Positions 42,286 to 58,964 of a stretch of DNA of 64,000 bases are shown here, piece after piece (within the stretch, counting starts at the first letter, position 1; every line of letters begins with the position of its first letter). Position numbers and translations under genes: made by a program. Source of the DNA: an uncultured Gammaproteobacteria bacterium (lineage in GTDB: Bacteria > Pseudomonadota > Gammaproteobacteria > GCA-001735895); contig CAZYYM010000006.1 in NCBI GenBank assembly GCA_964651385.1, positions 1,293-65,292 on the forward strand, written 5' to 3'. The notes under the pieces are model-generated. The model was not told the DNA's origin. It was given only the letters and a program-made list of their open reading frames with translations, and did no database searches.

Positions 42286-44004
42286 TTACTGTGGAATAGT
42301 TGAAGTAAAGGGTTCCGGTCTGGCTTCGGAGTCAGGTTGAAGATGTGGAATCGGTTCCGGTGACGCCATTCGCGATTTAGCTGCCTCGGAAAAATCATCC
42401 GCCGAAGTCGATGCCTCTCCAATCGGCATTTTCTCCCGCTCGGGCATATCCACCTGCATTTTTACCGTTTCCGGTAAGCTATCTGTGGCAGCTACAGAAT
42501 TTGATTGACGCCCTGTATCAGTAGCCGTTTGCTTCGGAGCTGTCGCAGAACTTTCCAGTTTTCCAAATGCCGCATTAATTGCCTCATTTTCGAAATCATC
42601 TCTGCTTGGTGGATCGGGATCGAGCTCAGGAACCAAATCCGCATTGGGCACTGGAAACGGGGCATCAACTGCTTCCGGTTTGGGATTCAATGTCGCCAGT
42701 GTATTTGCTGTTAGTTCCTGGACAGATTTAGAAGACGCAGCACTGTCAATTGCGGGCTTTGGTTGCGAAGGTCTTTTGGTCATTTCGATCCCGGGATTTG
42801 CAGCCGTACCTAAAGCAGGTTCCGGATTCGGTGCTTTCGCAGCTGACTGCACCCCGGTCGGTTTACTCGGTGCCACCGGTATATTGGCTTTAGACCCGGA
42901 AACCAATGTCGGTCTGGCAATTTTGCGCCGGGGAACGGGCGCATCCGTTTTCCTGGATTTAGCCACCGCCAATCTGGCAGCTACGACTGCCGATGGTCTG
43001 GTCGCTGCTGGTTTATTTGCGCCTGGTCGAGAAACGACTGCCTTTATCGCGACTGGTTTATTATTACGTTCCGACCCTGTCCCATTAGATCGAGATATTT
43101 TATCTTTGATAACTGCTGGACCACTAGCGGGATTCCGGGCCTTACCGATAAAAAATTCCATCTGTGGCCGGGGCATGCGTTTCAGATAACCATCCAAACT
43201 CGGTTTCAATCCATGGCCATCGGTCGTGACTCTGAGTCGGCGACTCAACACATATAGCATCTGTAACACGATGAGACGAACTGGCGCTGGGTCTATGCCG
43301 ATGCCCAAGAGGCTATTTTCACTCACTGTAAACGGGGCCGAATTTCTCCAGGCAAAACAACCCTGAGTCGCGACCACAGCAGGCAACTCCTTCATTGTAA
43401 CCGGCTTATGATTTTCCTCGCGCTCATCCATCCAGGCCTGCATCGTATCCCCGAGTTGCTTTGGACTGGTCTTGTAGCCATTGAACGCATAGATAAATGA
43501 AATTGGTCGACCCACCAAATGAAAACGTGCAGTGCGAATTGGTTCGGGGTGGACGTATTGCCTATTCTCGTTCATGGTGAGCTGATTCCTGGCAGCAAGA
43601 CCAGTCATCACTTTCGGATTGATATCAGGATTTAACACAGCCAGCGAAGCACACCGATTGAGCGCATCGAAGAATGTTTTCTTTACTAATTTCGCTGCGA
43701 CTTCGACAGTCGCTATCACGCTTTCGTAAAGATAAATATCGCGGCTGCCAGGTAAATCCAAACGCGGAAAATCGCGGCGATAGATTATAATATCCATTTT
43801 TCCTGAAAGTTTACCGCTCGAATCCATTATCTGTCCGCCACCGACACCATATATTTCGGGGAGGAAACGATCAAGTACCGAACGAATAAACGCAGATCTG
43901 GCGGCATCGCCCTCAAGTTCATGCCTGGTCAAACTAGTTAGCGGGTCGGCCTCGGATTTCAGGTACTTAGAAATTATTTGCGACCAGTCATCGAAGTTAT
44001 TCAT
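42286..44004 (-). CDS. Hypothetical protein: N-terminal PD-(D/E)xK-like (DUF6602-like) domain fused to a long Pro/Ala/Lys-rich low-complexity tail
   Basis: The N-terminal roughly 295 aa is globular: FLPEIYGVGGGQIMDSSGKLSGKMDIIIYR...LYESVIATVEVAAKL. The C-terminal roughly 280 aa (42289..43137) is low complexity. The maximal ORF starts at 44025. The product name is tentative. Confidence 0.5.
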   Translation of the reverse strand: MNNFDDWSQIISKYLKSEADPLTSLTRHELEGDAARSAFIRSVLDRFLPEIYGVGGGQIMDSSGKLSGKMDIIIYRRDFPRLDLPGSRDIYLYESVIATVEVAAKLVKKTFFDALNRCASLAVLNPDINPKVMTGLAARNQLTMNENRQYVHPEPIRTARFHLVGRPISFIYAFNGYKTSPKQLGDTMQAWMDEREENHKPVTMKELPAVVATQGCFAWRNSAPFTVSENSLLGIGIDPAPVRLIVLQMLYVLSRRLRVTTDGHGLKPSLDGYLKRMPRPQMEFFIGKARNPASGPAVIKDKISRSNGTGSERNNKPVAIKAVVSRPGANKPAATRPSAVVAARLAVAKSRKTDAPVPRRKIARPTLVSGSKANIPVAPSKPTGVQSAAKAPNPEPALGTAANPGIEMTKRPSQPKPAIDSAASSKSVQELTANTLATLNPKPEAVDAPFPVPNADLVPELDPDPPSRDDFENEAINAAFGKLESSATAPKQTATDTGRQSNSVAATDSLPETVKMQVDMPEREKMPIGEASTSADDFSEAAKSRMASPEPIPHLQPDSEARPEPFTSTIPQ

Positions 44005-44303
44005 AGCAATAGCCACTCCTACCACAATTATGGTGGACGTTGATTAAAGGGCATCCTATCCGTTGATAATTTAATATCTGATTCCGACAAACCTTTTTAA
44101 CTTTTCTAACAATTTAAAACCGGGATTGTGCCCTGTTGATTAAAAGCGCTCAAATGAGCGTACACCATCCAATAAAGTTGTGTAATAAATGAGAACTATC
44201 TAACATTAACGAAAGTGGTCCGCAAACAGTACTTTCATTCATCATTCATTTTTTCGGTTGTTAGAGTAATATAATAGCACCGATTAAAAGGTTTGGAGCT
44301 AAT

Positions 44304-45944
44304 GTGCCATTAATTGACGCCGCTCAAACGAATTTCGACACCATTTGTGCTAATTTCCGATGGAATATTCCTGAGAAACTAAATATCGCCCATCAGGTTT
44401 GTGAACGCCATCAGACTGAACCCGCGCGTATTGCAGTCTTTTATGAAAATGCGGCCGGCATAAAGACAGCCTATAGTTTCGGACAGTTGAAAACCTATTC
44501 CGATCAATTTGCCAATGCTCTGAAATACCTCAATATACAACGCGGCGATCGTGTAGCAATCGTTTTATCACAACGAATCGAAACTGTTATTGCACATCTG
44601 GCAATTTACAAGCTTGGCGCGATTGCCCTGCCACTGGCTATATTGTTTGGACCGGAAGCCCTCGAATATCGATTGCGCGATAGTGGTTCACGCATTGTGG
44701 TTACTGATGCCAGCAAATATGACGACCTGCGGGCATTGCAATCTGAACTTGGCGATTTAGAAACCATAGTTGGTTGCCAGATCGGTGAAGGCGATACTGA
44801 ATTCTGGCAATTGATTGAGCAGGCCTCCGCAAATTTTGAAATGGTTCAAACCTATGCCGATGATCCAGCCTGCCTGATTTACACATCGGGTACCACTGGG
44901 CCGCCAAAGGGTGCACTGGTTGCACATCGGGCAGTGATCGGCAATTTCACCGGTTTTGAAATGTCACAAAATTTTTTCCCTGGATCAAACGATGTATTCT
45001 GGACACCGGCCGACTGGGCCTGGACCGGCGGTCTGTGGGACGGGCTCCTGCCCAGTTTGAATTACGGTGTCCCAGTACTCGCTTTTGAAGGCGGCGGCTT
45101 TGACCCGGAACGCGCCGCAGTGCTACTCGGACAATATCATGTCAGCAATGCGTTCATTCCGCCAACTGCGCTAAAAATGTTGCGATCAGTAGAAAATTTA
45201 AAAGACAAGTATGCGATTCAATTGCGCGCTGTAATGAGCGCGGGTGAGCAGGTTGGCGAAGAATTGATCCACTGGGGACGCGAGGCTCTCGGTATTACCA
45301 TTAACGAAATGTGGGGACAGACTGAGTTCAATTACCTGGTTGGTAATTGCTCAGCCATACTACCGCCGAAACCGGGCTCTATGGGTAAATCATACCCCGG
45401 TCATCGTGTCGGCATTATTGATGATGACGGCCATCTACTTGCCGACGGCGAACACGGCGAACTCGCTGCCTGGTGCAATGATCCGGTCATGTTTCTCGGT
45501 TACTGGAAAAACAAGGACGCTACCGAAGCCAAAAAAATCGCCAACTGGTTTCGTACCGGTGATATCGGCTATCGGGACGAGGAAGGCTTCTTCTGGTTTG
45601 TCGGTCGTAAGGATGACGTTATCAGCAGCGCCGGATATCGCATCGGTCCCGGTGAAATTGAAGACTCACTGATCCGACATAGCGCTGTTTTACAGGCCGC
45701 CGTAATCGGCAAACCCGATACGCTACGCGGTCAAATAGTCAAAGCCTTTGTTGTACTGACTAAATATCAACAACCCAGTGACGAGCTGGCAAAAGAAATC
45801 CAGCAATCGGTACGAGAAAGACTTTCGGCGCACGAGTATCCCAGGGAAATAGAATTTGTCGAAACACTACCGATGACAACCACCGGCAAGGTTCGGCGCA
45901 TGGATTTACGACAACGCGAGATTGATAAAATTAGTCAGGTGTAA
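44304..45944 (+). CDS. AMP-forming acyl-CoA synthetase (ANL superfamily)
   Basis: AMP-binding motif IYTSGTTGPPKG, GYWKN, and the C-terminal TGKVRR. GTG start preceded by GGAG (44295..44298). Confidence 0.85.
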   Translation: MPLIDAAQTNFDTICANFRWNIPEKLNIAHQVCERHQTEPARIAVFYENAAGIKTAYSFGQLKTYSDQFANALKYLNIQRGDRVAIVLSQRIETVIAHLAIYKLGAIALPLAILFGPEALEYRLRDSGSRIVVTDASKYDDLRALQSELGDLETIVGCQIGEGDTEFWQLIEQASANFEMVQTYADDPACLIYTSGTTGPPKGALVAHRAVIGNFTGFEMSQNFFPGSNDVFWTPADWAWTGGLWDGLLPSLNYGVPVLAFEGGGFDPERAAVLLGQYHVSNAFIPPTALKMLRSVENLKDKYAIQLRAVMSAGEQVGEELIHWGREALGITINEMWGQTEFNYLVGNCSAILPPKPGSMGKSYPGHRVGIIDDDGHLLADGEHGELAAWCNDPVMFLGYWKNKDATEAKKIANWFRTGDIGYRDEEGFFWFVGRKDDVISSAGYRIGPGEIEDSLIRHSAVLQAAVIGKPDTLRGQIVKAFVVLTKYQQPSDELAKEIQQSVRERLSAHEYPREIEFVETLPMTTTGKVRRMDLRQREIDKISQV

Positions 45945-46538
45945 TGATACGCAACCTTGCTTGCGACAATTCTACCAGAGTCAGCCTGATTTCATCTAAA
46001 CGTGATTGAGGCACCAGCAATCAATAAACCACGTCATCGCTATAGTCTTTTTCTGACACAATGATCTTGCTCTTAAGCAAATAGAAGTCCAATTTTCCCT
46101 GGAAGTCACAGGGAAACTGAACAATAAGCGACCTGCTAATTTTTTTTAACTACATCAGACCACTTTAATGCATCACTTACCGACTGCGAGTAAGCCCGCA
46201 CTAGCCCCCACGCCGAGTTTTTTACCTCCAAAATATCGAGTAACCACCACTACGATATCACCCAATCCGGAATACTGTAAGACGTTAAACATCGGCTTTC
46301 CGGCACTACCTCCAGGTTCGCCATGATCACTTTGACCAAATTCATTTGCATCGTCAGGCCTGCCCGCAATGAAAGCCCAGCAATGGTGCGAAGCGGTTGG
46401 CATTTCGTCGCGAATATTCTGAACAAATTCCAATGCTTGCTCTCGCCCTGTAACTGTATTCAGACTGATTATAAATCGGCTGCGTTTGGTTTCGAGATCG
46501 AACCGGTGAAAACCATTGATCGTAGAGTACTCATCCAT
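45931..46538 (-). pseudogene. yigZ: yigZ (IMPACT/UPF0029 family) pseudogene
   Basis: The 121-aa ORF (46173..46538) loses the family motif after YFGGKKLGVG. LVRAYSQSVSDALK continues in a second frame after the C5 run at 46205..46209. A DUF1949-like tail (CDFQGKLDFYLLKSKIIVSEKDYSDDVVY) continues in a third frame after the T7 run at 46141..46147. That tail contains an in-frame TGA at 46021..46023. The reconstructed length is about 200 aa. Confidence 0.7.
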
Positions 46539-46892
46539 CGATAGGTTTATTGCGTTGAATTGAGCAAATAGCCATCGTCGACAGGGTAAAAAGCACGCTG
46601 AACTTCGCAGCTGCCAGCACAGCGATAAGTTGACTACCGACGGGTTGCATGTCGGTCAAGCCCACCAGGGCCATTGCCCGGAACACAGGCCCTCGCCAGT
46701 TTTTGCAAATCTTTTATATCGCAGGTAGCCGGCATAACGGAATTCCAGAAGAATGAATAGCGGCGACATTATAGCGACTGATCCTAGCCGAATTGAATTC
46801 TCTAGGCTATTACCTTCCCTTTACCGATACATAGCTGGCAAAGCCGGGGCCCGGCAAGTTATGATTAAGCCTTTACAGCAATCACACATTTC

Positions 46893-48383
46893 ATGCCCCT
46901 CGACTACCAAACTCTTGAGGCGCTCAGGCAAAACCATCCGGCCTGGCGTTTACTCGCTAGCCCTCATTCCGCGTTGATAGCAAGCTTTCTTCAGCGGGTT
47001 TTTGTCGATAAAAATGCGCGGGTGATTCCTCAGGCCGACCTGGTCGAAGCGCTGGAGGACGAGTTATTTCAACTGCGTGACATGCTTGGGGCCGAAAAAT
47101 TTCCGAAATCGGCGCCGGATTATCTAAATGACTGGGCCGCCCCGGAAAAAGGCTGGTTACGCAAATTCTACCGCCAGGACTCGGATGAAGTACAATTCGA
47201 TTTAACCCCGCCAACCGAAAGGGCATTGGCCTGGCTCGATGGCCTTGCCCAACGCAGTTTTGTCGGCACTGAATCTCGTCTGCTAATTTTGTTCGATCTA
47301 TTGCGCCAGCTCAGCGAAGGCAGTGACAAAGACCCGCAAACACGCTTACAGGAATTACAAAAACGTCGCGATATTATCGATGCCGAAATTGCCGAAGTGA
47401 CGCTGGGCCACGTCAGCCTGTTGGATGACACCGCGCTAAGAGACCGTTTTATGCAATTCAATCAGCAGGCCCGCGAACTGCTTTCCGACTTTCGCGAGGT
47501 CGAGCATAATTTTCGCCAGCTTGACCGTAACGTGCGCGAGCGCATCGCAACCTGGGATGGTGGCAAGGGAGAATTACTGGTCGAGATCATGGGTAAACGT
47601 GACGCTATTGCCGATTCCGATCAGGGTGCAAGCTTTCGTGCTTTCTGGGATTTTCTGATGTCGCCTGAACACCAGCAGGAATTCAGTGGACGATTGCACA
47701 GAGTGCTTGCGCTGCCTGCCATCAACCAGCTAAAACCCGACAAACGCACGCGCCGTATCCATCACGACTGGCTCGAAGCAGGCGAATACACACAGCGCAT
47801 GGTAGCTCAGTTATCGCAGCAATTGCGGCGTTTCCTCGATGATCAGGCATGGCTCGAAAATAAACGAATTATGGATATCCTGCATGGCATCGAAAACAAA
47901 GCCCTTTTGCTGCGCGATATGCCGCATAGCGCGCCAACGAGTACTGATTTTATCGCCCTGGATGAATCCTCAGCGCGTATAGAATTGCCTATGGAAAGAC
48001 CTCTTTACCAGCCATCGATAAGACCCTGCATCGCCGACATTGATTTATTAGATGGCGATCAGGATCTGAATTCGAGCGCGCTTTATACTCAAATTGTGGT
48101 GGACAAGGCGGCGATTGGCAGCCACATTCGCCAGACCTTACAGGAGCGCTCGCAGGTATCGCTAAGCGAGCTATGTACAAGTCGTCCGCTTACACAGGGG
48201 TTAGCCGAACTGGTCGCCTATCTGGAACTGGGCGCACAGGACGGTCCGAACGAGCACTTTGCCATGCTGATCGATGAGGACGTAAAAGAGATTATCAGCT
48301 GGACTTCAGAGCATCAAATGCAACGCCGCGCCAGCATGCCTCGCATTGTCTATTTACGTCCGTCGGCGAGCCAGCACCAATAG
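46893..48383 (+). CDS. jetA: Wadjet JetA (MksB-like kleisin, DUF3375 family)
   Basis: N-terminus LRQNHPAWRLLASPHSALIASFLQRVF...YLNDWAAPEKGWLRKFY matches my memory of DUF3375/JetA proteins. 496 aa and first of four coupled genes. Confidence 0.85.
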   Translation: MPLDYQTLEALRQNHPAWRLLASPHSALIASFLQRVFVDKNARVIPQADLVEALEDELFQLRDMLGAEKFPKSAPDYLNDWAAPEKGWLRKFYRQDSDEVQFDLTPPTERALAWLDGLAQRSFVGTESRLLILFDLLRQLSEGSDKDPQTRLQELQKRRDIIDAEIAEVTLGHVSLLDDTALRDRFMQFNQQARELLSDFREVEHNFRQLDRNVRERIATWDGGKGELLVEIMGKRDAIADSDQGASFRAFWDFLMSPEHQQEFSGRLHRVLALPAINQLKPDKRTRRIHHDWLEAGEYTQRMVAQLSQQLRRFLDDQAWLENKRIMDILHGIENKALLLRDMPHSAPTSTDFIALDESSARIELPMERPLYQPSIRPCIADIDLLDGDQDLNSSALYTQIVVDKAAIGSHIRQTLQERSQVSLSELCTSRPLTQGLAELVAYLELGAQDGPNEHFAMLIDEDVKEIISWTSEHQMQRRASMPRIVYLRPSASQHQ

Positions 48384-48396
48384 AATAATCACGAAA

Positions 48397-49041
48397 ATGG
48401 ACACCGCAAATACCAATTCGAATGCAGAAGTATCTACCCGGACAAACCTCGGCAGCCTCCTGGTGCCCTTACTAAAAGGCGTAATCTACCAGGATACCGA
48501 CGCCAAACGCTGGTCTGGCTTACTGGCCCTGCAAAACAGAGTCAGAGACTACGTCGCAATATTAGGCCTGGAGTTGATTCTGGATGAATCCGAAGGCTAC
48601 GCTTTCCTACGTTCTCGTCAGTTTGACACCGAAGATCATAGCGTTGAGGAAAACGGCGAAACGCCACGCTTGATCATGCGCCGGCAATTGTCGTTTCCCG
48701 TCAGCTTGTTGCTTGCGCTATTACGCAAAAAACTCGCCGAATTCGACGCTAGCGGCAGCGAAACCCGCCTGGTATTAAGCCGCGAAGATATCGTCGCTCT
48801 AATGCGCCTGTTTATGCCCGACATCAGTAACGAAGCCAGACTGGTAGATCAAATCGACCGACATATCAACAAAGTGGTCGATCTGGGATTTTTACGGCGT
48901 CTAAAACCGACCACACCAAAGAGTCAGCCCGGCTTCGAGGTACGCAGAATCATCAAGGCTTTTGTTGATGCCCAGTGGCTCTCGGAACTCGATCAAAAGC
49001 TCGAATCTTATCGGCAATTATTACTGGGCGATAACGACTAG
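48397..49041 (+). CDS. jetB: Wadjet JetB (MksE-like, DUF4194 family)
   Basis: 214 aa from the ATG at 48397, 13 nt after the jetA stop. LLKGVIYQDTDAKRWSGLLALQNRVRDYVAILGLELILDESEGYAFLR is typical of the family. The maximal ORF starts at 48346. Confidence 0.8.
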   Translation: MDTANTNSNAEVSTRTNLGSLLVPLLKGVIYQDTDAKRWSGLLALQNRVRDYVAILGLELILDESEGYAFLRSRQFDTEDHSVEENGETPRLIMRRQLSFPVSLLLALLRKKLAEFDASGSETRLVLSREDIVALMRLFMPDISNEARLVDQIDRHINKVVDLGFLRRLKPTTPKSQPGFEVRRIIKAFVDAQWLSELDQKLESYRQLLLGDND

Positions 49042-52000
49042 TGGAGAGCAGGATTTCAACAGAACGCTTAGTCATCGAAAACCCCGGGCTCGACTTTACC
49101 GGTGACAACGCGCTCAGCGGCTTCCGGCTGAAAAAGCTCGAAGTGTTTAACTGGGGTACGTTTAATGACCAGGTCTGGTCGTTAACTCTGGGAGGGAAAA
49201 ACAGCCTGCTCACTGGCGACATTGGTTCCGGTAAATCAACGCTTGTGGATGCAGTAACGACCCTGTTAGTGCCCGCCAACAAAGTCGACTATAACAAGGC
49301 GGCCGGCGCGGAGAAAAAGGAGCGCCATTTGCGCTCTTACGTGCTCGGTTACTACAAGTCGGAACGCAGCGAAAGCAGCGGCAAATCCAGACCGGTAGCG
49401 TTGCGCGATCAAAATAGTTACTCGGTCATCCTCGGCGTATTTTACAACCAGGGTTATGATCAGACCGTAACACTCGCGCAAGTGTTCTGGATGAAAGAAT
49501 TGCAGGGACAGCCACAACGTTTTTTCGTGGGTGCAGAAAAAGCGCTGGGCATTAAGCAGGATTTCGCCCACTTTGGCGGCGAGATGTCTGCGTTGCGTAA
49601 GCGCTTACGTAAAGATGGTTGCGAATTGATGGAACACTTCCCCCAATACGGTGCCTGGTTCCGCCGCCGTTTCGGTATCGAAAATGAACAGGCATTAGAT
49701 CTTTTCCACCAGACCGTATCGATGAAGTCGGTCGGTAACCTGACCGGGTTCGTACGTACGCACATGCTCGAACCATTTGATGTCGCGCCACGAATCCAGG
49801 CCCTGATCGAACACTTCGATGACCTTAATCGCGCACACGAAGCGGTGTTAAAAGCGCAACAACAAATCAAACGACTGACGCCTTTGATCGCCCATTGCGA
49901 CCAGCACCAGCAGCGACTTGAAACCACCAGAGAACTGCGCCACAGTCGTGATGCGCTCACCTGTTACTTCAGCGCTATAAAGCAGCAACTCCTTGAACAG
50001 CGCCTCGAACGACTGCAAGTGGGTCTCTCGCGCCAGCAAAGCAAACTTCGGAGTCTCGATAGCGAAAAAAACGCCTTGCACAGTCAACAGCAGGAATTGA
50101 AACAACAAATAGCCGAAAATGGCGGGGACCGCGTCGAACGTCTGCAACGGCAAATTCAGCAACAGGGAATAGAGCGCGAACGCCGATTTGCAAAATCCGA
50201 GCGCTATCGAAACTTGCTCGTAGCGCTATCGCTAAAGGCTGTGCAAGACGCCGAGGCCTTTGTCGAACAGCAGCTAAGCCTTCAACAGAAACAGACACAA
50301 CTGCGACAGCAACAGGCTGACCACAATAATCGTTCGCGGGAAGCAGAGTTTGATTTCCTGCGCAGACAGGAAGAATACAATGAATTAAAACAGTCCATTA
50401 CGCAGCTAAAATCACGCCAGAGCAATATCGACCAGCGGCAGATTGATATCCGTCGTCAACTCTGCATTGCACTGTCCGATAATGGCGCACAGGTGGGTGA
50501 AGCCGACTTGCCCTTCGCCGGTGAATTACTCCAGGTTCGTGAAGAAGACAAAAAATGGCAGGGCGCGATCGAGCGCTTAATGCATAACTTCGGCCAATCC
50601 ATGCTAGTGCCGGATGAGCATTATAGCCGTGTCGCGCAATGGGTCGATGAGACCCTCCTGCGTGGTCGCCTGGTGTATTTCCGCGTGCGCCAAAACCAGC
50701 CAGGTAGATTGCCATCGCTGCATCCGGATTCACTGATACGTAAAATCACGATCAAGCCCGATTCGCCGTTTTACCTTTGGCTTGAACAAGAAACCACCCG
50801 CCGCTTCGATATCGCCTGTTGCGAATCCCAGCAGCAATTCCGTCGCGAGAAACGCGCTATCACGAGTAACGGCCAGATCAAAGCGTCGGGCGAACGCCAC
50901 GAAAAAGACGACCGTTTTGCTATCGACGACCGCAGCCGTTTTGTGCTCGGTTGGAGCAACCAGGATAAGATCGCAGCGCTGGCAAACAAGGCAACACGGC
51001 TTGAACGCGAGATGGCGGCCCTGGGACAGACCATTGGGGGGTTGCAAAAGCATGAAAAGCAGATCAAAGACACCCTGGAGGCGATCAGTAAACTGGAGGA
51101 ATACAGCGATTTCGAGGAACTGGACTGGCAGCCCCTGGCACGAATTATCGCCAACCTGCAAGCCGAACTGGGCCAACTCGAATCTTCTTCAGATCTGTTA
51201 CAGACGCTCACACAAAAATTAAAAGAACTTGAATCGGCACTCACCGACAATGCCACGCGCCTAAGCAAGGCGCATGAAGAACTCGGCAGCACGAAGCAGA
51301 AAATAGTGACGACCGAAGAACAACACGACGAGGTACAGACCATTCTGGCTGGCGAGGAGGCCGAACAAAGCCAGACCTGGTTCGAGCGCCTCGACAAATT
51401 GCTCACCGAAGCACTTGGCGAGCACAAACTCACGTTGAGCTCCTGTGACACCCATCAGCAGCAAATGCGTAAATGGCTACAGGACCGGATAGATACCGAG
51501 GACAGGCGCGTGAGCCGACTTCAGGAAAAAATCGTCAAGGCGATGAGCGACTACAAAAACGATTTCAGGCTGGAAACCCAGGAAGTCGATGCGGCAGTTG
51601 AGGCTGCGGATGAATACCGGCAAATGCTGACACTGTTACAGGCTGATGACCTGCCGCGATTCGAATCCCGCTTTAAGTCCTTGTTGAACGAAAATACCAT
51701 TCGAGAAGTCGCCAATTTCCAGTCGCAATTACATCGTGAGCGGGAAACCATCAAAGATCGTATCGCACAAATCAACGACTCACTCACGCAGATCGACTAT
51801 AACCCCGGTCGTTATATCAAGCTGGAAGCCCAACCGAGCCAGGATGTCGATATCCGCGACTTTCAAACCGAGCTGCGCGCCTGCACCGAAGGCGCGATCA
51901 CCGGCTCGCAGGATGAGCAATATTCCGAAAACAAATTTTTGCAGGTAAAACGCATCATCGAACGTTTTCGGGGTCGTGAAGGGTTGAGCGACCAGGACAA

Positions 52001-52472
52001 ACGCTGGGCAATCAAGGTCAGTGATGTACGTAACTGGTTCGGCTTTGCGGCCTCTGAACGCTGGCGCGAAGACGATAGTGAGTTCGAGCACTATTCGGAC
52101 TCGGGGGGAAAGTCCGGCGGGCAAAAAGAAAAACTCGCCTACACAATTCTTGCCGCCAGCCTGGCCTACCAGTTCGGCCTGGAATGGGGTGCGCTGCGAT
52201 CTCGCTCGTTCCGTTTTGTCGTTATAGACGAAGCTTTCGGCCGTGGATCGGACGAATCCACACAATACGGTCTTAAGTTATTCGAACAGTTAAATTTGCA
52301 ATTGCTAATCGTCACGCCATTGCAGAAAATTCATATTATCGAACCTTACGTGGCGAGCGTCGGCTTTGTCCACAATGAGGTCGGACTCGCCTCCAAAGTA
52401 CGTAATCTCAGCATCGAAGCCTATCATCAGGAAAAGGCACAGCTACATCGTCGCAACACTGATGACAAATAG
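49041..52472 (+). CDS. jetC: Wadjet JetC (MksF-like SMC-family ATPase)
   Basis: 1143 aa. Walker A GDIGSGKST (49215..49241), a long Q/E/L/R-rich coiled-coil middle, an ABC-signature-like SGGQKEKLAY, and Walker B FVVIDEAF (D and E codons at 52227..52232). GTG start overlaps the jetB stop by 1 nt. Confidence 0.9.
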   Translation: MESRISTERLVIENPGLDFTGDNALSGFRLKKLEVFNWGTFNDQVWSLTLGGKNSLLTGDIGSGKSTLVDAVTTLLVPANKVDYNKAAGAEKKERHLRSYVLGYYKSERSESSGKSRPVALRDQNSYSVILGVFYNQGYDQTVTLAQVFWMKELQGQPQRFFVGAEKALGIKQDFAHFGGEMSALRKRLRKDGCELMEHFPQYGAWFRRRFGIENEQALDLFHQTVSMKSVGNLTGFVRTHMLEPFDVAPRIQALIEHFDDLNRAHEAVLKAQQQIKRLTPLIAHCDQHQQRLETTRELRHSRDALTCYFSAIKQQLLEQRLERLQVGLSRQQSKLRSLDSEKNALHSQQQELKQQIAENGGDRVERLQRQIQQQGIERERRFAKSERYRNLLVALSLKAVQDAEAFVEQQLSLQQKQTQLRQQQADHNNRSREAEFDFLRRQEEYNELKQSITQLKSRQSNIDQRQIDIRRQLCIALSDNGAQVGEADLPFAGELLQVREEDKKWQGAIERLMHNFGQSMLVPDEHYSRVAQWVDETLLRGRLVYFRVRQNQPGRLPSLHPDSLIRKITIKPDSPFYLWLEQETTRRFDIACCESQQQFRREKRAITSNGQIKASGERHEKDDRFAIDDRSRFVLGWSNQDKIAALANKATRLEREMAALGQTIGGLQKHEKQIKDTLEAISKLEEYSDFEELDWQPLARIIANLQAELGQLESSSDLLQTLTQKLKELESALTDNATRLSKAHEELGSTKQKIVTTEEQHDEVQTILAGEEAEQSQTWFERLDKLLTEALGEHKLTLSSCDTHQQQMRKWLQDRIDTEDRRVSRLQEKIVKAMSDYKNDFRLETQEVDAAVEAADEYRQMLTLLQADDLPRFESRFKSLLNENTIREVANFQSQLHRERETIKDRIAQINDSLTQIDYNPGRYIKLEAQPSQDVDIRDFQTELRACTEGAITGSQDEQYSENKFLQVKRIIERFRGREGLSDQDKRWAIKVSDVRNWFGFAASERWREDDSEFEHYSDSGGKSGGQKEKLAYTILAASLAYQFGLEWGALRSRSFRFVVIDEAFGRGSDESTQYGLKLFEQLNLQLLIVTPLQKIHIIEPYVASVGFVHNEVGLASKVRNLSIEAYHQEKAQLHRRNTDDK

Positions 52473-53673
52473 TAACCCGAAATGGAGTAGTAAAAAGACC
52501 CTGTTGGCGCAGCTTCAAAAATCCTGGGACAAGGGTATTTTATTAAGAGACTGCATAGAGAACAATAACTTATTCCCGATGCCTCTCAAGTTTAAATCAC
52601 CCGGCAGCAATGCCCTGGCGCACGAATTTGATGCGGTGCGTTGCTGGGTAGCCGAGATACAAAGGCTCAGCGCTTATCGTATTGTTTACAAAACACGATA
52701 CCATCGCATCATTGGCGAAAACAGCCTCCCCTGCGAAGCCTGGGTCGATACGCGCAAAGTCGCCATCGAACTGCTCGGCAAACAGCCGCAACTTGACGCT
52801 TTTTTACGGTTACTCAACACAACCCGCAAACGAGCGCCCTGGCTCATTGACTGGGTCAGGCAATTTCCGTTCAAGGCGCTAAACCTCTCCGAAAGCTGGT
52901 CGAAGTTAATTGATTTCATATGCTGGCGACAACAACATCCGCAGCCCGGCATTTATTTGCGGCAGGTCAGCCTGCGCGGAATCGATAGTAAATTTATTGA
53001 ACAGCATCGTTCGACTCTGGCGCAATTACTCGATTTATCGCTACCGCCTTCGCAGATAAATCGCGAAAAAATTGGTAGCCGGCAATTTCCGCAACGCTAT
53101 GGTTTTCGTAACAAACCGCCGAGACTGCGCTTTCGCCCGCTCGACGCCAGGCTGGCACTGTTGCCCGGAACCGACCACGATATCAGCCTTAGCGTCGATG
53201 ATGCGAATGCGCTGCAGCTAAAGCCTCAATTTATCAATCATATTCAGCACATTTTTATCACAGAAAACGAGATTAATTACCTCTCCTTTCCGCCTGCAAA
53301 TAACAGCGTGGTGATATTCGGTGCCGGCTATGGATTCGAGGCGCTCGAAAAAATTGGCTGGCTTGGTCAAAGGCAAATATTCTACTGGGGCGATATCGAC
53401 ACACATGGTTTCGCCATTCTTGACCAACTGCGCAGCAAATTTCCCAATGCGCAAAGTCTGTTGATGGACGAACCTACACTGGTGCACCACCGAGAATTCT
53501 GGGGCGAGGAAGACAAACCCAGAAACGGCGGTTTACAGCGCCTCAATCCCAGCGAACAAAAGCTTTATCAGTCACTGATATACAATACCCATCATCCCCG
53601 TTTACGGTTGGAACAGGAGCGAATTTCTTTCGAGTATTTAATGGCTTCCCTGCCGAAAATCAGGGCTGACTAA
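52462..53673 (+). CDS. jetD: Wadjet JetD (MksG-like Toprim nuclease, DUF2220 family)
   Basis: 403 aa from an ATG that overlaps the jetC stop by 11 nt. Toprim Glu in ITENE (53257..53271) and the DxD motif in WGDIDTHGF (53389..53400). Confidence 0.85.
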   Translation: MTNSNPKWSSKKTLLAQLQKSWDKGILLRDCIENNNLFPMPLKFKSPGSNALAHEFDAVRCWVAEIQRLSAYRIVYKTRYHRIIGENSLPCEAWVDTRKVAIELLGKQPQLDAFLRLLNTTRKRAPWLIDWVRQFPFKALNLSESWSKLIDFICWRQQHPQPGIYLRQVSLRGIDSKFIEQHRSTLAQLLDLSLPPSQINREKIGSRQFPQRYGFRNKPPRLRFRPLDARLALLPGTDHDISLSVDDANALQLKPQFINHIQHIFITENEINYLSFPPANNSVVIFGAGYGFEALEKIGWLGQRQIFYWGDIDTHGFAILDQLRSKFPNAQSLLMDEPTLVHHREFWGEEDKPRNGGLQRLNPSEQKLYQSLIYNTHHPRLRLEQERISFEYLMASLPKIRAD

Positions 53674-53675
53674 CC

Positions 53676-54344
53676 ATGTTATCGATTCGCAATCTATATA
53701 AATCATTTAAACAACCGGAAGGTAATATCAGTGTTTTCAACGGACTGGATTTCGACATGGCAGCGGGCAGGTCGATTGCCTTACTCGGCGAAAGCGGTAG
53801 CGGAAAAAGTACCTTGTTGCATTTAATCGCTGGCCTCGATGTAGTAGATGCGGGGGAAATTATCGTTGGTGATAAAAAACTCACATCGATGTCAGAAGCC
53901 GGCCTTGCCGAAATGCGCCGTCAGCAAGTTAGCCTGGTCTTTCAGCAATTTCACCTGATAGCTACAATCAATATCGCCGATAACATTCGTTTTCAGGCGG
54001 CTTTATGCCAAAGATACGATGCCGAATATGAATCCCTGTTGATCGATCGTCTCGGGCTTATTCAGCAGTTAAAAAAGTTTCCCCACCAACTTTCTCGTGG
54101 GCAGCAGCAACGCGTCGCCATTGCGCGATCACTGCTACATCGACCGGCGCTCGTGCTCGCCGACGAACCCACCGGCAACCTCGACGAGCAATCCAGTCTC
54201 GAAGTCATGTCGCTATTCAGTTCGCTGGTCAAAGACACCGGTAGCAGCTTACTGATGGTGACGCACAGTCGCGATATGGCAGATTATCTCGATCAATCTG
54301 TCCTCCTGCACAATGGCAAGATTGGCGAGTTCGATGACGTCTAG
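53676..54344 (+). CDS. ABC transporter ATP-binding protein (LolD/MacB-type)
   Basis: Walker A GESGSGKST, signature LSRGQQQR and Walker B LVLADEPTGNLD. The ATG lies 2 nt after the jetD stop. Confidence 0.9.
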   Translation: MLSIRNLYKSFKQPEGNISVFNGLDFDMAAGRSIALLGESGSGKSTLLHLIAGLDVVDAGEIIVGDKKLTSMSEAGLAEMRRQQVSLVFQQFHLIATINIADNIRFQAALCQRYDAEYESLLIDRLGLIQQLKKFPHQLSRGQQQRVAIARSLLHRPALVLADEPTGNLDEQSSLEVMSLFSSLVKDTGSSLLMVTHSRDMADYLDQSVLLHNGKIGEFDDV

Positions 54345-56850
54345 GCTGTTCTGGGTTAGCAAAGCGGTTTTCAGTCACTACTGGCGGCATCGTTGGCAAA
54401 CTCTGTTTTTATTAACCGGGCTGGTGGCCGGAGTCGGTCTGTGGAGCGCCGTTCAGATCATCAACGAACAGGCTCGTTTAAGTTATCAACAGGCGGATTC
54501 GCTACTCGGTATACAGGCCAGTCACTGGATTCGCAGCCGCTCCGAGCTGGGTGTTTCGCAATCTGACTATATCAAATTACGTCGGCAGGGCTTTCGCCGG
54601 CTATTCCCGATTGTTGAAGGCCGGGTAAGTACGAGTGCCGGAAATCCAATTCGTATAATCGCCACCGATTTATTGGCGTTGCCGAATAATATATTCGAAT
54701 CCGTTGGGCATGATTCGACAGTCTCATCGGCATCTGGCTGGCTTGAATTTGTGCAACCGCCTTATCGCGCGTGGGTTCCACATCAGCTCGCCGAGGAATT
54801 TAACCTAAAAAACGGTGATCAGTTGCTACTAAGCGACGGCAGGCGATTACCGCCAACGTCGGTACAAAGCCACCAACAGCAGGGCAGGCGGATATTTATG
54901 GATATCGCGGCAGCTTTCGAACTGCTCAATAAACAACATTTCAGCTACCTGGCCGTTGCAAATCCAAGTCCCGAAGTACTCGACAATTTGCAGAAAGCCT
55001 TACCCGAAAACCTCAAACTGGTGGAGAACCGGCAACATCTGGATCTTGCACAACTCACCGAAAGCCTGCACACGCATCTTAGCGCTATGAGCTTGCTTTC
55101 CTTCGCGGTCGGCTTATTCATTGTTTTCAATGCGGTGAGATTTTCACTCTGGCATCGTCGATCCACTCTTCTAAATTTACGTTTAATGGGTGTCAGTGCA
55201 GGTCAGTTTTTACTGGCGATTGCGCTGGAGTTAGTACTCTGGAGTCTAATTGGATCCGGTATGGGCCTTATACTAGGATTCCAAATTGGACACTGGTTGC
55301 TGCCGGGTCTGGGTACAAGCCTGCACAGCCTGTATGACGCTACCGTCGAAACCGAATTAATCTGGCAGATTGACACCGTTTTCAAGGCCTGGATGATTAC
55401 TTTGGCAGGATTATTATGGGCATTGGGCTGGCCCATTTATCAACAGCTAAAACATAATAGCCTGCCTTCAAATGTGACAACCAGAGTGCCACAGGATGAA
55501 CGGCAGTCTCGATCCCAACTGGCAATAGCCGGGTTTGTTTTAATATTACTGGCCGGCTTTATTTACCCCTATATAAATACCATCCTAAGTGGATTCGTAT
55601 TGCTGGGATTATTGCTTTTTGGCGCCGCCTGGTTATTACCGACACTGCTCGCATCGGTACTCACATTATTGTCCAGATACATCCCTGAAAGACACTTATT
55701 GGCGCGCTGGCTGGTCAGCGACGGCTGGGCGCAATTACCTGCCTTTCGACCTGCGATGATGGCATTAATGCTGGCAATGACTGCAAATTTGGGCGTAGGC
55801 GCCCTGGTAGACAGTTTTCGCAACGCATTCGTCAACTGGCTGGAAATTCGCCAAAGCGCCGATATTTATCTACGCTCGCCTAATGTCAATATCAATCTAT
55901 TGCTTGATCCACAACAGTCGTCGCAATGGCTGGCGTACAGCCATCAACGTATTGGCGTCAGCAGCCGTTGGCGTGACCGGCTAACATTCATCAGAGGCGT
56001 GGATACCCATGCGCCCGACAGTCGAGCTCTGCCACTGGCACAATGGCTGGGTGCAACTCCCGAAGATGCCCTGGCTCAATGGCGGGAACAACCCTCCCGC
56101 ATTCTCGCCAACGAGCAGACGCATTACCTGGGTGGACTGCAACTCGGTGACAAACTCGAACTGCAATCTGACAACGGTTCCCGAGAATACCAGGTAGTCG
56201 GATTTTTCTACGACTACGGCACACCTTATTTCCAGTTTTATTTACCCTATGCCGAAGTCGCTGGACATTGGCGGACGCATCGTTCGCAAGGTATCGCGCT
56301 GTGGTTAAAAACATCGATTAATCCGCAGCAAAACATCCAGCGTGCCGAAGCAGCCATGCGTGCCGCCGGCGCCAGAACCGGTGACTGGATATCGCAATCT
56401 CAGGTTCGAAAATTATCCTTAAAAATTTTTGATCGTACCTTCGCCATTACCTCGGCGATGAATGGCCTGACCATGATTGTCGCGGCGATTGCTTTGCTGG
56501 CGTCATTACTGGCTATCCTGCAGGAACGTCTGCCACAGTATGCACAATGGCAGGCGCTGGGCATCCGCTGGTCCGAACAAATGTTAATTATTAGCTGCCC
56601 GATATTTATTTTTGTCTGTATTTCGTGGTTATTGGCAATTCCGCTCGGCGCCCTGTTAAGCTGGTTATTGATTCACAAACTGAATATTGTCAGCTTTGGC
56701 TGGAGTATGCCAATGACCTGGGATATGACACCGGCCTGGCAACTGGCGGGCGTCATCTTACTGGTAGTCGGCTGCACACTGCTGCTCGCCGGCTGGCAAT
56801 TACGGCGACGCCTGCCCGAGGCACTCGCACAGCTCGGGGAACTGGCATGA
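54334..56850 (+). CDS. ABC transporter permease with duplicated FtsX-like domains
   Basis: About 838 aa with two 4-TM FtsX-type modules, each preceded by a large extracytoplasmic loop. The ATG at 54334 overlaps the ATPase stop. Confidence 0.85.
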   Translation: MTSRLFWVSKAVFSHYWRHRWQTLFLLTGLVAGVGLWSAVQIINEQARLSYQQADSLLGIQASHWIRSRSELGVSQSDYIKLRRQGFRRLFPIVEGRVSTSAGNPIRIIATDLLALPNNIFESVGHDSTVSSASGWLEFVQPPYRAWVPHQLAEEFNLKNGDQLLLSDGRRLPPTSVQSHQQQGRRIFMDIAAAFELLNKQHFSYLAVANPSPEVLDNLQKALPENLKLVENRQHLDLAQLTESLHTHLSAMSLLSFAVGLFIVFNAVRFSLWHRRSTLLNLRLMGVSAGQFLLAIALELVLWSLIGSGMGLILGFQIGHWLLPGLGTSLHSLYDATVETELIWQIDTVFKAWMITLAGLLWALGWPIYQQLKHNSLPSNVTTRVPQDERQSRSQLAIAGFVLILLAGFIYPYINTILSGFVLLGLLLFGAAWLLPTLLASVLTLLSRYIPERHLLARWLVSDGWAQLPAFRPAMMALMLAMTANLGVGALVDSFRNAFVNWLEIRQSADIYLRSPNVNINLLLDPQQSSQWLAYSHQRIGVSSRWRDRLTFIRGVDTHAPDSRALPLAQWLGATPEDALAQWREQPSRILANEQTHYLGGLQLGDKLELQSDNGSREYQVVGFFYDYGTPYFQFYLPYAEVAGHWRTHRSQGIALWLKTSINPQQNIQRAEAAMRAAGARTGDWISQSQVRKLSLKIFDRTFAITSAMNGLTMIVAAIALLASLLAILQERLPQYAQWQALGIRWSEQMLIISCPIFIFVCISWLLAIPLGALLSWLLIHKLNIVSFGWSMPMTWDMTPAWQLAGVILLVVGCTLLLAGWQLRRRLPEALAQLGELA

Positions 56851-57908
56851 GGAACTTGTTGCCCTTACTCATTCTATTATCCACTGTGCTGGCAGATGAC
56901 AGTTTCGAGGTTTTACGCGATGATGCCGAAGGTTATGCCCGGGTAATACCTGGAAAGGTTTTTGATTTTCCTTTTGACCATGGCCCGCATCCCGACTTTC
57001 GCATCGAGTGGTGGTATTTAACTGGTAATTTACAGGATGCAAAGGGACGCTCCTGGGGGTTACAGTGGACTCTGTTTCGTCAGTCGCTTTCGCCTGGATC
57101 GATAACGAAACGGGGCTGGTCGAACAGTCAACTCTGGATGGCCCATGCTGCCATCAGCACTCCCGACGGTCATCAATTTGAACAACGCTTTGCGCGCGGT
57201 GGCATCGGGCAGGCAGGAGTAAGACTCGATGATCGATTCGAAGCCTGGATAGATGATTGGATATGGCAATCTGATACCGACTCATTGTTTCCTTCACAGC
57301 TGCAATTTCGTATTGCCGACAAAGACATTCATATGCAATTAAGCAGCACTGCCGGCTGGGTGTTGCACGGCGACTCGGGATACAGTCAAAAATCACAACA
57401 GGGTCAGGCCAGTTATTACTACAGTCAACCACGGATACAAATAAAGGGCAGGATTGCGGGACAACTATTGGCCGGCTCCGCATGGCTGGACAGAGAATGG
57501 AGTTCGCAGCCCCTGTCGCCGAATCAGGACGGCTGGGACTGGTTCTCGTTGCACTTGAATGATGGTTATAAGCTCATGCTTTACCGATTGCGACATGACG
57601 ACGGTGAACATTGGCTAAGCGGTAGCTGGGTAGACCCTCTTGGCAAAGTTCGACATCTTGCTAAAGATCAAATTGAATTAACTGTGCTTGCCAAACGAGG
57701 GATTGAAATTGACAGCAAAAAAATTATTTTACCACTGGACTGGAGAATCGCTTTACCTGGATTAAATCGCCACTTTCAAGTTAAGCCTTTGTACGATCAA
57801 CAGTGGATGGAGGCGAGATTTCCTTACTGGGAGGGCGTTGTTCTAGTAAAAGATGATAACGGTGAACAGGTTGGCGAAGGATACATGGAATTAACGGGAT
57901 ACCAATAA
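56847..57908 (+). CDS. Lipocalin-like / CrtC hydratase-like (AttH-like) secreted protein
   Basis: Signal peptide MRNLLPLLILLSTVLA. HPDFRIEWWYLTGNL...GLQWTLFR is typical of the AttH/CrtC family. ATGA overlap with the permease stop. The 5' part of the maximal ORF (from 56625) lies inside the permease gene. Confidence 0.65.
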   Translation: MRNLLPLLILLSTVLADDSFEVLRDDAEGYARVIPGKVFDFPFDHGPHPDFRIEWWYLTGNLQDAKGRSWGLQWTLFRQSLSPGSITKRGWSNSQLWMAHAAISTPDGHQFEQRFARGGIGQAGVRLDDRFEAWIDDWIWQSDTDSLFPSQLQFRIADKDIHMQLSSTAGWVLHGDSGYSQKSQQGQASYYYSQPRIQIKGRIAGQLLAGSAWLDREWSSQPLSPNQDGWDWFSLHLNDGYKLMLYRLRHDDGEHWLSGSWVDPLGKVRHLAKDQIELTVLAKRGIEIDSKKIILPLDWRIALPGLNRHFQVKPLYDQQWMEARFPYWEGVVLVKDDNGEQVGEGYMELTGYQ

Positions 57909-57914
57909 TCGGGG

Positions 57915-58964
57915 TTACATTCGGCTTAATATTTTTCGCACAGGTACCGGTAATCCATATTCGGATAATTTATCCAGAGGCACAAATGCTAGATCATCAT
58001 TGTCAGAGATTTTCCCCGGCAGGGTTTCAACCACTATTTTAGCCACCGATATATGCAGGCTAAAATGCGTAAACTGGTGCTTTAGAAAATTTTCACTGAC
58101 CGACAGGTGATGTGGTTGTCGTGATAAATTTCTTGCCTGCCAGGCGTCAATTTCATCGACCCCACCTACTTCCGGCAGGGACCACAAACCACCCCAAACG
58201 CCAGTCGGTGGACGACGATGCAACAGAACCCGGTCTTTGTAACTATGCAGCAGCATCAACGTCTTTTTACATGGTTTTGTTTTGGCTGGTTTCCTGTGTG
58301 GATACAGATGCTGTGTTTGATGTTGAAAACTGTGGCAATGCAAATTCAATGGGCATTTTTGACAAAGTGGTTTTGAATTCAGACAAACCATAGAACCCAA
58401 ATCCATCATCGCCTGATTAAAGTCACCGGTTCTTTGCATTGGTGTAACCTGTTCGGAACGCTCCCAAAGCCGTTTCATCGTCTTACTTTGGCCGTACCAG
58501 CCCGAAACCTGGAAACAACGCGCAAGTACACGTTTGACATTGCCATCAAGTATTGCCCGGCTTTGTCCATGCGAAAAAGTCAGAATTGCGGCAGCTGTAG
58601 AACGTCCAATTCCGGGCAATTCCAGAACGGATTCCATTGAATCGGGAAATACTGCATCGTGTCGGTCACGAATGAGCCGGGCCGCCTTATGCAGGTTTCT
58701 GGCCCGCGCATAGTAACCGAGTCCCTGCCAGAGCAGCAGAACCTGATCAATATCGGCATCGGCGAGAGCTGCGATAGATGGGAACCTTTCAAGAAACCGT
58801 CGGTAGTAAGGAATAACCGTGGCAACCTGGGTTTGCTGCAACATGATCTCCGACAGCCAAACCCGGTAGGCGGTCTTGTCCTTTTGCCAGGGTAAATCGT
58901 GGCGACCATGCAGTTCAAACCAATCGAGCAATGTCTCGCCAAAGGATACGCTTTTGTCCGGCAT
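57915..58964 (-). CDS. mutY: A/G-specific adenine DNA glycosylase
   Basis: LLDWFELHGRHDLPWQ, the HhH-GPD region LPGIGRSTAAAI, and the Fe-S cysteines C-x6-C-x2-C-x5-C (CLNSKPLCQKCPLNLHC). Alternative TTG start at 58976. Confidence 0.9.
   Translation of the reverse strand: MPDKSVSFGETLLDWFELHGRHDLPWQKDKTAYRVWLSEIMLQQTQVATVIPYYRRFLERFPSIAALADADIDQVLLLWQGLGYYARARNLHKAARLIRDRHDAVFPDSMESVLELPGIGRSTAAAILTFSHGQSRAILDGNVKRVLARCFQVSGWYGQSKTMKRLWERSEQVTPMQRTGDFNQAMMDLGSMVCLNSKPLCQKCPLNLHCHSFQHQTQHLYPHRKPAKTKPCKKTLMLLHSYKDRVLLHRRPPTGVWGGLWSLPEVGGVDEIDAWQARNLSRQPHHLSVSENFLKHQFTHFSLHISVAKIVVETLPGKISDNDDLAFVPLDKLSEYGLPVPVRKILSRM

Follow-up and report, generated by a model that had tools for sequence, protein, structure and literature searches.

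Positions 46893–53673 of the window (the whole 64-kb stretch of DNA analysed) contain four open reading frames that form a single co-directional operon on the forward strand, in the order jetA-jetB-jetC-jetD. jetA (46893–48383, ATG start, 496 aa) encodes a kleisin subunit with a DUF3375 domain, and jetB (48397–49041, ATG, 214 aa) a KITE subunit of the DUF4194/MksE type. jetC (49041–52472, GTG, 1143 aa) encodes an SMC-like ABC ATPase with a long coiled coil and a hinge, and jetD (52462–53673, ATG, 403 aa) a nuclease subunit with a DUF3322 arm/CAP region and a JetD_C Toprim domain. There is a 13-nt gap between jetA and jetB (48384–48396), a 1-nt overlap between jetB and jetC (TAGTG at 49039–49043) and an 11-nt overlap between jetC and jetD (52462–52472). 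The ORF map agrees with the sizes and orientation given in a first-pass annotation of this DNA, and its three junctions are exact. The identical gene order is found in three other loci (L007, L010 and L011).

Longer open reading frames with TTG starts exist for jetB (from 48346) and jetD (from 52366). Homologues back the 214-aa form of JetB; the JetB of L007 is also 214 aa long, and the two N-termini are collinear. The cassette has a GC content of 51.6%, compared with 48.0% for the whole window. The host is an uncultured marine-type gammaproteobacterium and the locus is chromosomal. When the locus was compared by megablast with every complete E. coli genome, no match appeared; the source is not an enterobacterium. 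An exact look-up of JetA yielded no record, and that of JetD led to L006, a second assembly of the same population.

Protein families and catalytic motifs

Searches with PADLOC and Pfam profiles matched all four of the Wadjet families that had been expected. JetA matches the PADLOC model JetA1 (E-value = 6.2e-211, aa positions 3–489 of 496) and Pfam DUF3375 (1.6e-150; 502.6 bits, cut-off 28.6). JetB matches JetB1 (3.7e-89), DUF4194 (4.5e-44, 150.5 bits) and MksE (2.4e-15, 57.7 bits). JetC matches JetC1 with an E-value of 0 and 1595 bits (aa positions 16–1135 against profile positions 6–1120 of 1123), as well as Pfam AAA_29 and SbcC_Walker_B. Its arm segments are rich in Q, E, L, K and R residues (fraction 0.47–0.55), and the coiled coil is predicted from this composition together with alignment. 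JetD matches JetD1 (1.5e-131), DUF3322 (2.7e-46) and JetD_C (5.4e-50). With full-length HMM E-values of 4e-89 to 0, the four-gene match lies far outside what chance would give.

The PADLOC models of types II and III give weak signals (JetC2 2e-08, JetC3 2.5e-04, JetD3 1.7e-06). The strong matches of every Jet protein are exclusively to type I models and extend along the whole length of all four proteins. This assigns the system to type I rather than to type II or III, as had been proposed from the gene layout.

JetC displays a Walker A motif, GDIGSGKST (aa positions 59–67, nt positions 49215–49241), an ABC signature, SGGQ (aa positions 1025–1028, nt positions 52113–52124), and a Walker B motif, VVIDEAF (aa positions 1060–1066, nt positions 52218–52238). 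In JetD the Toprim acidic motif ITENE is found at 53257–53271, with the catalytic glutamate E268 encoded at 53263–53265, and the DxD motif, GDID, at 53389–53400 (D311 and D313). The first-pass annotation had considered these motifs intact, and the positions it gave for all but SGGQ are exact. Residues T267, E268, N269 and E270, and also Y308, W309, G310, D311, I312 and D313, are the same in all of 35 JetD homologues. The GDID region aligns with YWGDMD of PDB 8q72 and YWGDLD of 8b7f. E268 aligns with position 248 of the 8q72 protein, JetD(E248A), a cleavage-deficient mutant (10.1101/2023.11.03.565488); a JetD devoid of nuclease-type Toprim residues, the reservation attached to the earlier assignment, is thus not what the alignment displays. 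With open reading frames of full length relative to the profiles and the catalytic residues kept, the system appears from its sequence to be intact and not decayed, as was first claimed.

Positions 46893–53673 therefore very probably (about 0.9) encode a complete type I Wadjet system (JetABCD, also termed MksBEFG or EptABCD).

Flanking regions and transcription

The left flank had been described as a single decayed gene. Decay is evident, but there are two remnants, both on the minus strand. The first, at 46555–46735, is a remnant of an FMN-dependent dehydrogenase in which residues 1–19 and 71–115 are recognisable and the remainder is deleted. In tblastn searches with the L001 and L007 proteins as queries, aa positions 71–115 gave E-values of 3.5e-09 and 7e-09 and aa positions 1–19 gave 2e-05 to 2e-03. 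The second remnant is a truncated yigZ/IMPACT-family gene at 46173–46538, which encodes 121 aa and only the N-terminal domain (NCBIfam PRK11568, 8.7e-36, positions 9–112 of 204; Pfam UPF0029 is also matched). A continuation of yigZ was absent from all frames of 45945–46172.

On the right, the transporter operon that had been reported is confirmed as a conserved core ABC transporter operon (53676–57908, forward strand), beginning 2 nt past the jetD stop codon. It comprises a LolD/YbbA-like ABC ATPase (53676–54344), an FtsX/MacB-type permease (54313–56850) and a CrtC/AttH-type lipocalin (56625–57908), all on the forward strand.

The region upstream of jetA (46767–46892, forward strand) originates from the native spacer between the FMN-dehydrogenase and ABC genes, as an alignment of nine intergenic regions indicates. 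It includes a conserved sequence, CATTATAGCGAC, at 46767–46778. Its minus strand gives TATAAT, and the lost dehydrogenase gene probably had its −10 box here. The conserved motif CATTATAnCGAC upstream of jetA was considered as a captured ABC promoter. Reverse-complemented, it matches TATAAT perfectly, and in all relatives it lies ~35–40 nt before the start of the divergently oriented FMN-dehydrogenase gene; because of this orientation and position, it is better read as the dehydrogenase −10 box. The upstream region also has a 52-nt lineage-specific insert that contains an imperfect palindrome. Homology to L007 begins at 46835.

About 62 nt before jetA are similar to the promoter region of the ABC operon in relatives. 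Shuffle tests on these last 62 nt gave z = 4.0 (L016), 3.4 (L015) and 2.8 (L014), while an earlier comparison of the jetA-upstream sequence with that upstream of the L001 ABC gene was not significant (z about 1.6–1.8, p about 0.06–0.075). The region upstream of jetA may thus be homologous to that upstream of the ABC operon in relatives, with significance only against the closer ones, L014–L016. A simple scan upstream of jetA found no convincing sigma-70 promoter, and no obvious Shine-Dalgarno sequence precedes jetA or the ABC gene.

The ABC ATG follows the jetD stop after a gap of 2 nt in the window and 8 nt in L007, and no terminator-like site was found on the forward strand of 45800–54500. 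These small gaps, the absence of a terminator and the resemblance of the jetA-upstream sequence to the ABC promoter region of relatives make it likely that jetABCD is co-transcribed with the ABC operon, the transporter genes being read through after jetD. The former promoter region of the ABC operon would then serve jetABCD. The idea that Wadjet and the ABC transporter are functionally linked was also considered and rejected: JetD homologues with 58–60% identity have other neighbours, among them toxin-antitoxin, type I restriction-modification, AbiE or other unrelated genes.

The earlier claim that integrase, tRNA and transposase genes are absent beside the Wadjet locus agrees with the scans. 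There are no tRNA genes in the whole 64 kb, and no integrase or transposase domains among the scanned open reading frames (the majority of those with 100 aa or more between 33.1 and 63.5 kb, and the larger ones farther upstream). Short direct and inverted repeats around the cassette occur at chance level only. Transfer through flanking homology would leave a recombination tract in common with L007 where the ABC gene begins, and none is present: over its first 300 nt this gene is 76%–81% identical to L014 and 65%–69% to L007, and such a tract is rejected because the ABC start is nearer to L014.

Distribution, age and alternative readings

The comparison with related genomes that the first-pass annotation had proposed shows 46.9–53.7 kb to be variably present. 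The cassette is missing from seven of nine related loci that share the flanks (L001, L002 and L014–L018), where the ABC operon is present with the FMN-dependent dehydrogenase gene directly upstream. One further lineage, L007/L008 (ENA ERZ27251236 k141_2461771; JGI Ga0316189_10011069), has Wadjet in the identical slot. This is the closest Wadjet found, with a DNA identity of about 73% and aa identities of 79%, 72%, 80% and 64% for JetA, JetB, JetC and JetD. The dN/dS ratios between the window and L007 are 0.05–0.16 for all four jet genes and a similar 0.07–0.09 for the flanking ABC genes, values that are rough because dS is saturated (above 1.6). Absence from seven relatives, the shared slot at ~73% DNA identity and the low dN/dS indicate, as far as sequence comparison goes, that the cassette is accessory yet old and under long-term purifying selection at a fixed chromosomal slot.

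The two Wadjet-bearing lineages are not each other's closest relatives, and the slot is empty in relatives closer to the window organism. It is conceivable, though rather doubtful, that the cassette is a promoter-less insert that begins at about the jetA start codon, ends a few bases past the jetD stop and is placed exactly between the promoter/5′ leader of the ABC operon and its start codon. If so, either relatives would have exchanged the cassette at a hotspot, precisely and by an unrecognised route, or it would have been cleanly excised several times; in both cases a defence system would now share its transcript with an envelope transporter.

Two other readings of the operon as a whole were weighed. 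The first, which is improbable, is that the Wadjet is sequence-intact here but silent or decaying in the population, a relic heading for loss as in the seven Wadjet-less relatives, either through poor expression or through frameshift variants such as those of L006. The degraded left flank, with its dehydrogenase remnant and truncated yigZ, and the lack of a clear promoter or Shine-Dalgarno sequence are in keeping with it. L006 is 99.8% identical and carries five single-base indels: two at the jetA start (46892 and 46896), one in an A7 run of jetC (50065) and two in the permease (55148 and 55217). They all fall within the stretch from jetA to the permease and would frameshift jetA, jetC and the permease. 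However, L006 is the lower-quality assembly and contains Ns, three of the five indels lie in homopolymer runs and two would also break the conserved core permease, so that assembly error fits better than biology. The full-length open reading frames of the window, its complete set of catalytic residues and the low dN/dS against L007 likewise speak against decay. Should the L006 indels be real variants, the system would be inactive in part of the population.

The second, which is very improbable, is that the operon encodes a chromosome-organising condensin of the MksBEF/MukBEF type that has no defence role, its fourth gene being irrelevant. JetABC is structurally MukBEF-like, JetB also matches Pfam MksE, and an old, vertically maintained cassette that is under purifying selection and lies in a core chromosomal region free of mobile-element marks would suit such a role. 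[quoted passage not shown] The best models of all four proteins are those of Wadjet type I, and the lack of the whole cassette in seven close relatives does not fit an essential role in chromosome maintenance. The presence and conservation of JetD thus largely refute the condensin reading.

A Lamassu system (LmuABC) is dismissed, as LmuB models match only part of the JetC coiled coil, at 2.8e-12, compared with E = 0 for JetC1, and matches to LmuA and LmuC are absent from the PADLOC search of the four proteins.

Proposed mechanism and comparison with known systems

For the type I Wadjet reading, a mechanism can be carried over by homology from the E. coli GF4-3, P. aeruginosa PA14 and C. glutamicum systems (10.1101/2022.10.04.510915; 10.1101/2023.11.03.565488; PMC10586767). 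JetC (SMC ATPase), JetA (kleisin) and JetB (KITE) would assemble into a dimer-of-dimers loop-extruding motor that loads onto DNA and then extrudes it. On small circular DNA (up to roughly 50–100 kb) extrusion would run to completion and then stall, and the stalled motor would recruit or activate the dimeric Toprim nuclease JetD to cut the plasmid; its size would protect the chromosome. By this analogy, JetABCD is predicted to carry out ATP-dependent cleavage/restriction of small circular plasmids.

The locus represents an accessory defence system without the usual island hallmarks, long kept at one slot and probably wired into the transcription of a core transporter operon. It is therefore informative about the gain and loss of defence systems at chromosomal hotspots, and leaves knowledge of Wadjet itself unchanged. 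L007/L008 share the slot between the FMN-dehydrogenase and the ABC ATPase, with jetD likewise abutting the ABC start. L007 differs in having an intact dehydrogenase, where the window has the remnant, the truncated yigZ and the 52-nt insert upstream of jetA.

The E. coli GF4-3 JetABCD (type I; PDB 8as8, 8bfn, 8q72) is alike in gene order and domain content. JetC matches it over its full length (8as8, 6e-52) and JetA at 6.8e-18 (8q72); the JetD Toprim domains align, E268 falling on the catalytic E248 and GDID on GDMD. The sequences are nevertheless far apart. The system differs in host, in that the JetD match is only 4e-08 (8q72) and confined to Toprim and a short CAP stretch, and in that JetB is unmatched by phmmer, as it is against solved structures in general.

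The P. aeruginosa PA14 JetABCD (type I; PDB 8dk1-3, 7til) is the best solved-structure match for JetC (8dk2, 4.1e-61, residues 28–1134 against 31–1109, hinge region included) and for JetA (8dk1, 1.2e-23); the JetD match is weak (7til, 8.5e-07, Toprim only). An N-terminal IFDR motif that contacts JetD is reported for JetB. It is absent from the N-terminus of the window JetB in both the 214-aa and the 231-aa reading, and is not family-defining.

For JetD, the best solved-structure match is MksG of the C. glutamicum MksBEFG system (PDB 8b7f, 2.5e-18, residues 144–400), with ENxxxF, YWGDxDxxGF and the C-terminal LRxEQERI aligned. This system differs in being actinobacterial, and the N-terminal arm is unaligned. 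The family is already known and has been characterised structurally and biochemically, and the window adds one more intact type I Wadjet to it. Since the closest JetD relative is only 64% identical, the locus also adds some sequence diversity for comparative work.

The jetABCD Genes and Their Neighborhood

The candidate anti-plasmid operon is located on the plus strand at positions 46893–53673. It consists of jetA (46893–48383, 496 aa), jetB (48397–49041), jetC (49041–52472, 1143 aa) and jetD (52462–53673). JetB and JetD are 214 and 403 aa long with the start codons chosen in the first-pass annotation; alternative open reading frame starts are at positions 48346 and 52366, respectively. There is a 13-nt gap between jetA and jetB, a 1-nt overlap (TAGTG) between jetB and jetC, and an 11-nt overlap between jetC and jetD. 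The open reading frame list and a check of the junctions agree in every detail with the four same-strand open reading frames, sizes and junctions first reported. The motif coordinates were also exact, i.e. translation yields GDIGSGKST (49215–49241) and VVIDEAF (about 52218–52238) in JetC, and ITENE (53257–53271) and GDID (53389–53400) in JetD. By translation, the SGGQ motif of JetC is at 52113–52124.

The window represents core chromosome, with rapA, pyruvate kinase, pgk, transketolase, metK-ahcY, yggS-proC-yggT, a PAP2 phosphatase, mutY, asmA, DUF2333 and gdh genes. An SAH riboswitch (Rfam RF01057, 14537–14609, plus strand; 55.9 bits vs a gathering score of 37) is directly 5′ of metK (14630–15817), which is followed by ahcY (15859–17277). 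A 2040 aa ChpA-like hybrid kinase of the Chp chemosensory type (18533–24655), a nearby MCP (24678–26822) and three consecutive T2SSE-family (PilT/PilU-like) ATPase genes (35524–38926, minus strand) make up a twitching-motility/Chp cluster. No tRNA is present in the window, and no integrase or transposase domains were found among its scanned open reading frames.

Immediately left of jetA there is a truncated yigZ/IMPACT gene (46173–46538, minus strand), which retains the N-terminal domain only. The first-pass annotation correctly placed a decayed gene here but missed a second one, a remnant of an FMN-dependent dehydrogenase on the minus strand at 46735–46679 (residues 1–19) and 46695–46555 (residues 71–115) (tblastn E-value = 3.5e-09). 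All eight related lineages have an intact copy of the dehydrogenase gene, of which the window has only these two short fragments. They are joined directly to the truncated yigZ/IMPACT gene, and 228 bp of non-coding DNA follows. Rearrangement and foreign DNA are candidate sources of the yigZ fragment. Immediately right of the cassette is a LolD/YbbA-like ABC ATPase whose ATG is 2 nt past the jetD stop codon; next come an FtsX/MacB-type permease and then a CrtC/AttH lipocalin.

A 579 aa DUF6602 protein is encoded at 42286–44025 (minus strand; N-terminal domain Pfam E-value = 1.1e-16). In PADLOC this domain matches a Cas-associated PD-DExK nuclease model (5.9e-21) as well as NucC-type endonuclease effectors (9e-11 and 8e-07); the remaining ~450 aa of the protein gave no match. 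Nearly all of the related loci that were compared (L001, L002, L014, L015, L017, L018) have the gene in a syntenic position, whether Wadjet is present or not, which makes it a conserved nuclease-like gene 2.9 kb from Wadjet.

A second, lower-quality assembly of the same population (L006, a 21-kb contig, KVRMV2_100037513, JGI sample 3300002231) encodes a JetD identical to that of the window. Over 15.5 kb (window positions 42463–58006) it shares 99.8% identity with the window and differs by 27 mismatches or Ns and by five single-nucleotide indels. The stretch from the jetA start to the permease contains all five: 46892 and 46896 at the jetA start, 50065 in an A7 run in jetC, and 55148 and 55217 in the permease. 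They split jetC and the permease in the gene calls. Three of these lie within homopolymer runs, and two would disrupt a conserved core gene. Assembly error is the probable explanation, and real frameshift alleles would be the alternative.

Occupancy and History of the Slot

The first-pass annotation suspected variable presence, and the cassette is indeed accessory. Seven loci from related uncultured Gammaproteobacteria (L001, L002, L014–L018) share the neighborhood, with permeases 67%–78% identical to that of the window, and none of the seven has Wadjet. Their gene order is DUF6602(−), acyl-CoA synthetase(+), FMN-dehydrogenase(−), ABC ATPase(+), permease, AttH, mutY(−), asmA(−), DUF2333, with a gene missing in some loci, e.g. 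the synthetase in L002. In these loci the ABC ATPase gene is the divergent neighbor of the dehydrogenase gene, at a distance of 49–122 bp in L001 and L002, where it was measured.

Exactly the same slot is filled by jetABCD in one other lineage, represented by L007 (ENA) and L004=L008 (JGI). There an intact dehydrogenase lies 105 bp ahead of jetA, and the ABC ATG is 8 nt past the jetD stop codon. This is the closest Wadjet in a collection of 5.8 billion proteins, with identities to the window proteins of 79% (JetA), 72% (JetB), 80% (JetC) and 64% (JetD). JetD homologues of 58%–60% identity are in unrelated contexts, beside toxin-antitoxin, type I restriction-modification and AbiE genes, and one of them is a decayed remnant. 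The association between Wadjet and the ABC transporter is therefore positional, not functional. At 9550–11227 of a locus in another genome (L012/L013, GCA_964451365.1), only a 155-aa C-terminal piece of JetC stands ahead of a JetD with 58% identity to the window protein; this decayed Wadjet adjoins a T6SS VgrG/Rhs cluster.

The window and L007 copies differ as much as their flanking genes do, so the cassette was not acquired recently by the window lineage alone. The flanks most similar to those of the window are in L014 and L016, which lack Wadjet (ATPase 83%–84%, permease 76%–78% identity); those of L007 are more distant (78% and 72%). No L007-like tract was found at the start of the window's ABC gene, and no flanking repeats bound the cassette. 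Two histories would fit: either the cassette was present in ancient times and was cleanly lost more than once, or it was exchanged laterally at this slot long ago; percent identities alone do not decide between the two. The context is mildly instructive, if unsurprising to specialists: an accessory yet old cassette, free of mobile-element marks, in front of a core operon.

Upstream Region and Transcription

Two intergenic elements are common to the Wadjet-less loci. One, CATTATAnCGrC, gives TATAAT when read on the minus strand; it lies about 35–40 nt from the dehydrogenase start and is probably the −10 box of that gene. Both Wadjet-bearing loci retain it ahead of jetA (46767–46778 in the window). 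The other, GGCGATGsCCTGTGTTAyyAT on the plus strand, resembles an extended −10 element and would probably serve as the ABC promoter. In the window, the 62 nt directly preceding jetA resemble the ABC-upstream sequence of the closest relatives (z = 4.0 for L016, 3.4 for L015 and 2.8 for L014); the similarity is not significant with more distant loci.

In the window, a 52-nt insertion (46779–46831) that L007 and all Wadjet-less relatives lack separates the jetA leader from the conserved −10-like motif. The insertion, which includes the imperfect palindrome CCTAGCCGAATT/GAATTCTCTAGG, could be an operator or the scar of a small repeat element.

No terminator-like sites were found on the plus strand at 45800–54500, jetD and the ABC gene are 2 nt (window) or 8 nt (L007) apart, and the region upstream of jetA shows the similarity described above. 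Most economically, the cassette would sit between the ABC start codon and the native promoter/leader of the ABC operon, and jetABCD and the transporter genes would form one transcript. Because a consensus promoter scan gave no convincing promoter upstream of jetA, the single transcript is what we infer.

Relationship to Known Wadjet Systems

All four proteins match the type I profiles of PADLOC-DB: JetA1 (6.2e-211), JetB1 (3.7e-89) and JetD1 (1.5e-131) end to end, and JetC1 (E-value = 0, 1595 bits) at profile positions 6–1120 of 1123. Matches to the type II and type III Wadjet models and to Lamassu LmuB are weak. The Pfam families, all far above gathering scores, are DUF3375 (JetA), DUF4194 and MksE (JetB), AAA_29 plus SbcC_Walker_B (JetC), and DUF3322 plus JetD_C (JetD).

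An alignment of 35 JetD homologues, 45%–63% identical to the window protein, shows T267, E268, N269, E270, Y308–D313 (including D311 and D313) and R382–E386 to be invariant. E268 aligns with the E248A-substituted position of the 8q72 chain; E248A is a cleavage-deficient JetD mutant used for cryo-EM work (10.1101/2023.11.03.565488).

In the Wadjet mechanism (10.1101/2022.10.04.510915; 10.1101/2023.11.03.565488; PMC10586767; PMC10123090), JetC, JetA and JetB would assemble into a DNA-extruding SMC motor, a dimer of dimers. If the DNA is circular and small (less than roughly 50–100 kb), extrusion would run to the end and stall, and the JetD Toprim dimer would be engaged and cut the DNA. Larger or linear DNA would be spared. 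Compared with the orthologous L007 cassette, dN/dS is 0.07 for jetA, 0.07 for jetB, 0.05 for jetC and 0.16 for jetD, and 0.07–0.09 for the adjacent ABC genes; these values are rough since dS is saturated. The low dN/dS, the coverage of all profile positions and the retention of all catalytic residues give indirect but good support for a working system.

The window JetC aligns over its full length with the JetC proteins of P. aeruginosa (8dk2, 4.1e-61) and E. coli GF4-3 (8as8, 6e-52). JetA aligns with the solved structures 8dk1 and 8q72, and JetD with C. glutamicum MksG (8b7f, 2.5e-18) as well as with JetD of E. coli (8q72) and P. aeruginosa (7til). JetB gave no phmmer match in PDB. In view of the profile, Pfam and structure matches and the invariant JetD residues, neither outcome that the first-pass annotation named as refuting is seen. 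Its Wadjet assignment stands, and the locus is, by its sequence, a type I Wadjet with ATPase and nuclease motifs intact. It was correctly recognized as a textbook member of an already known family.
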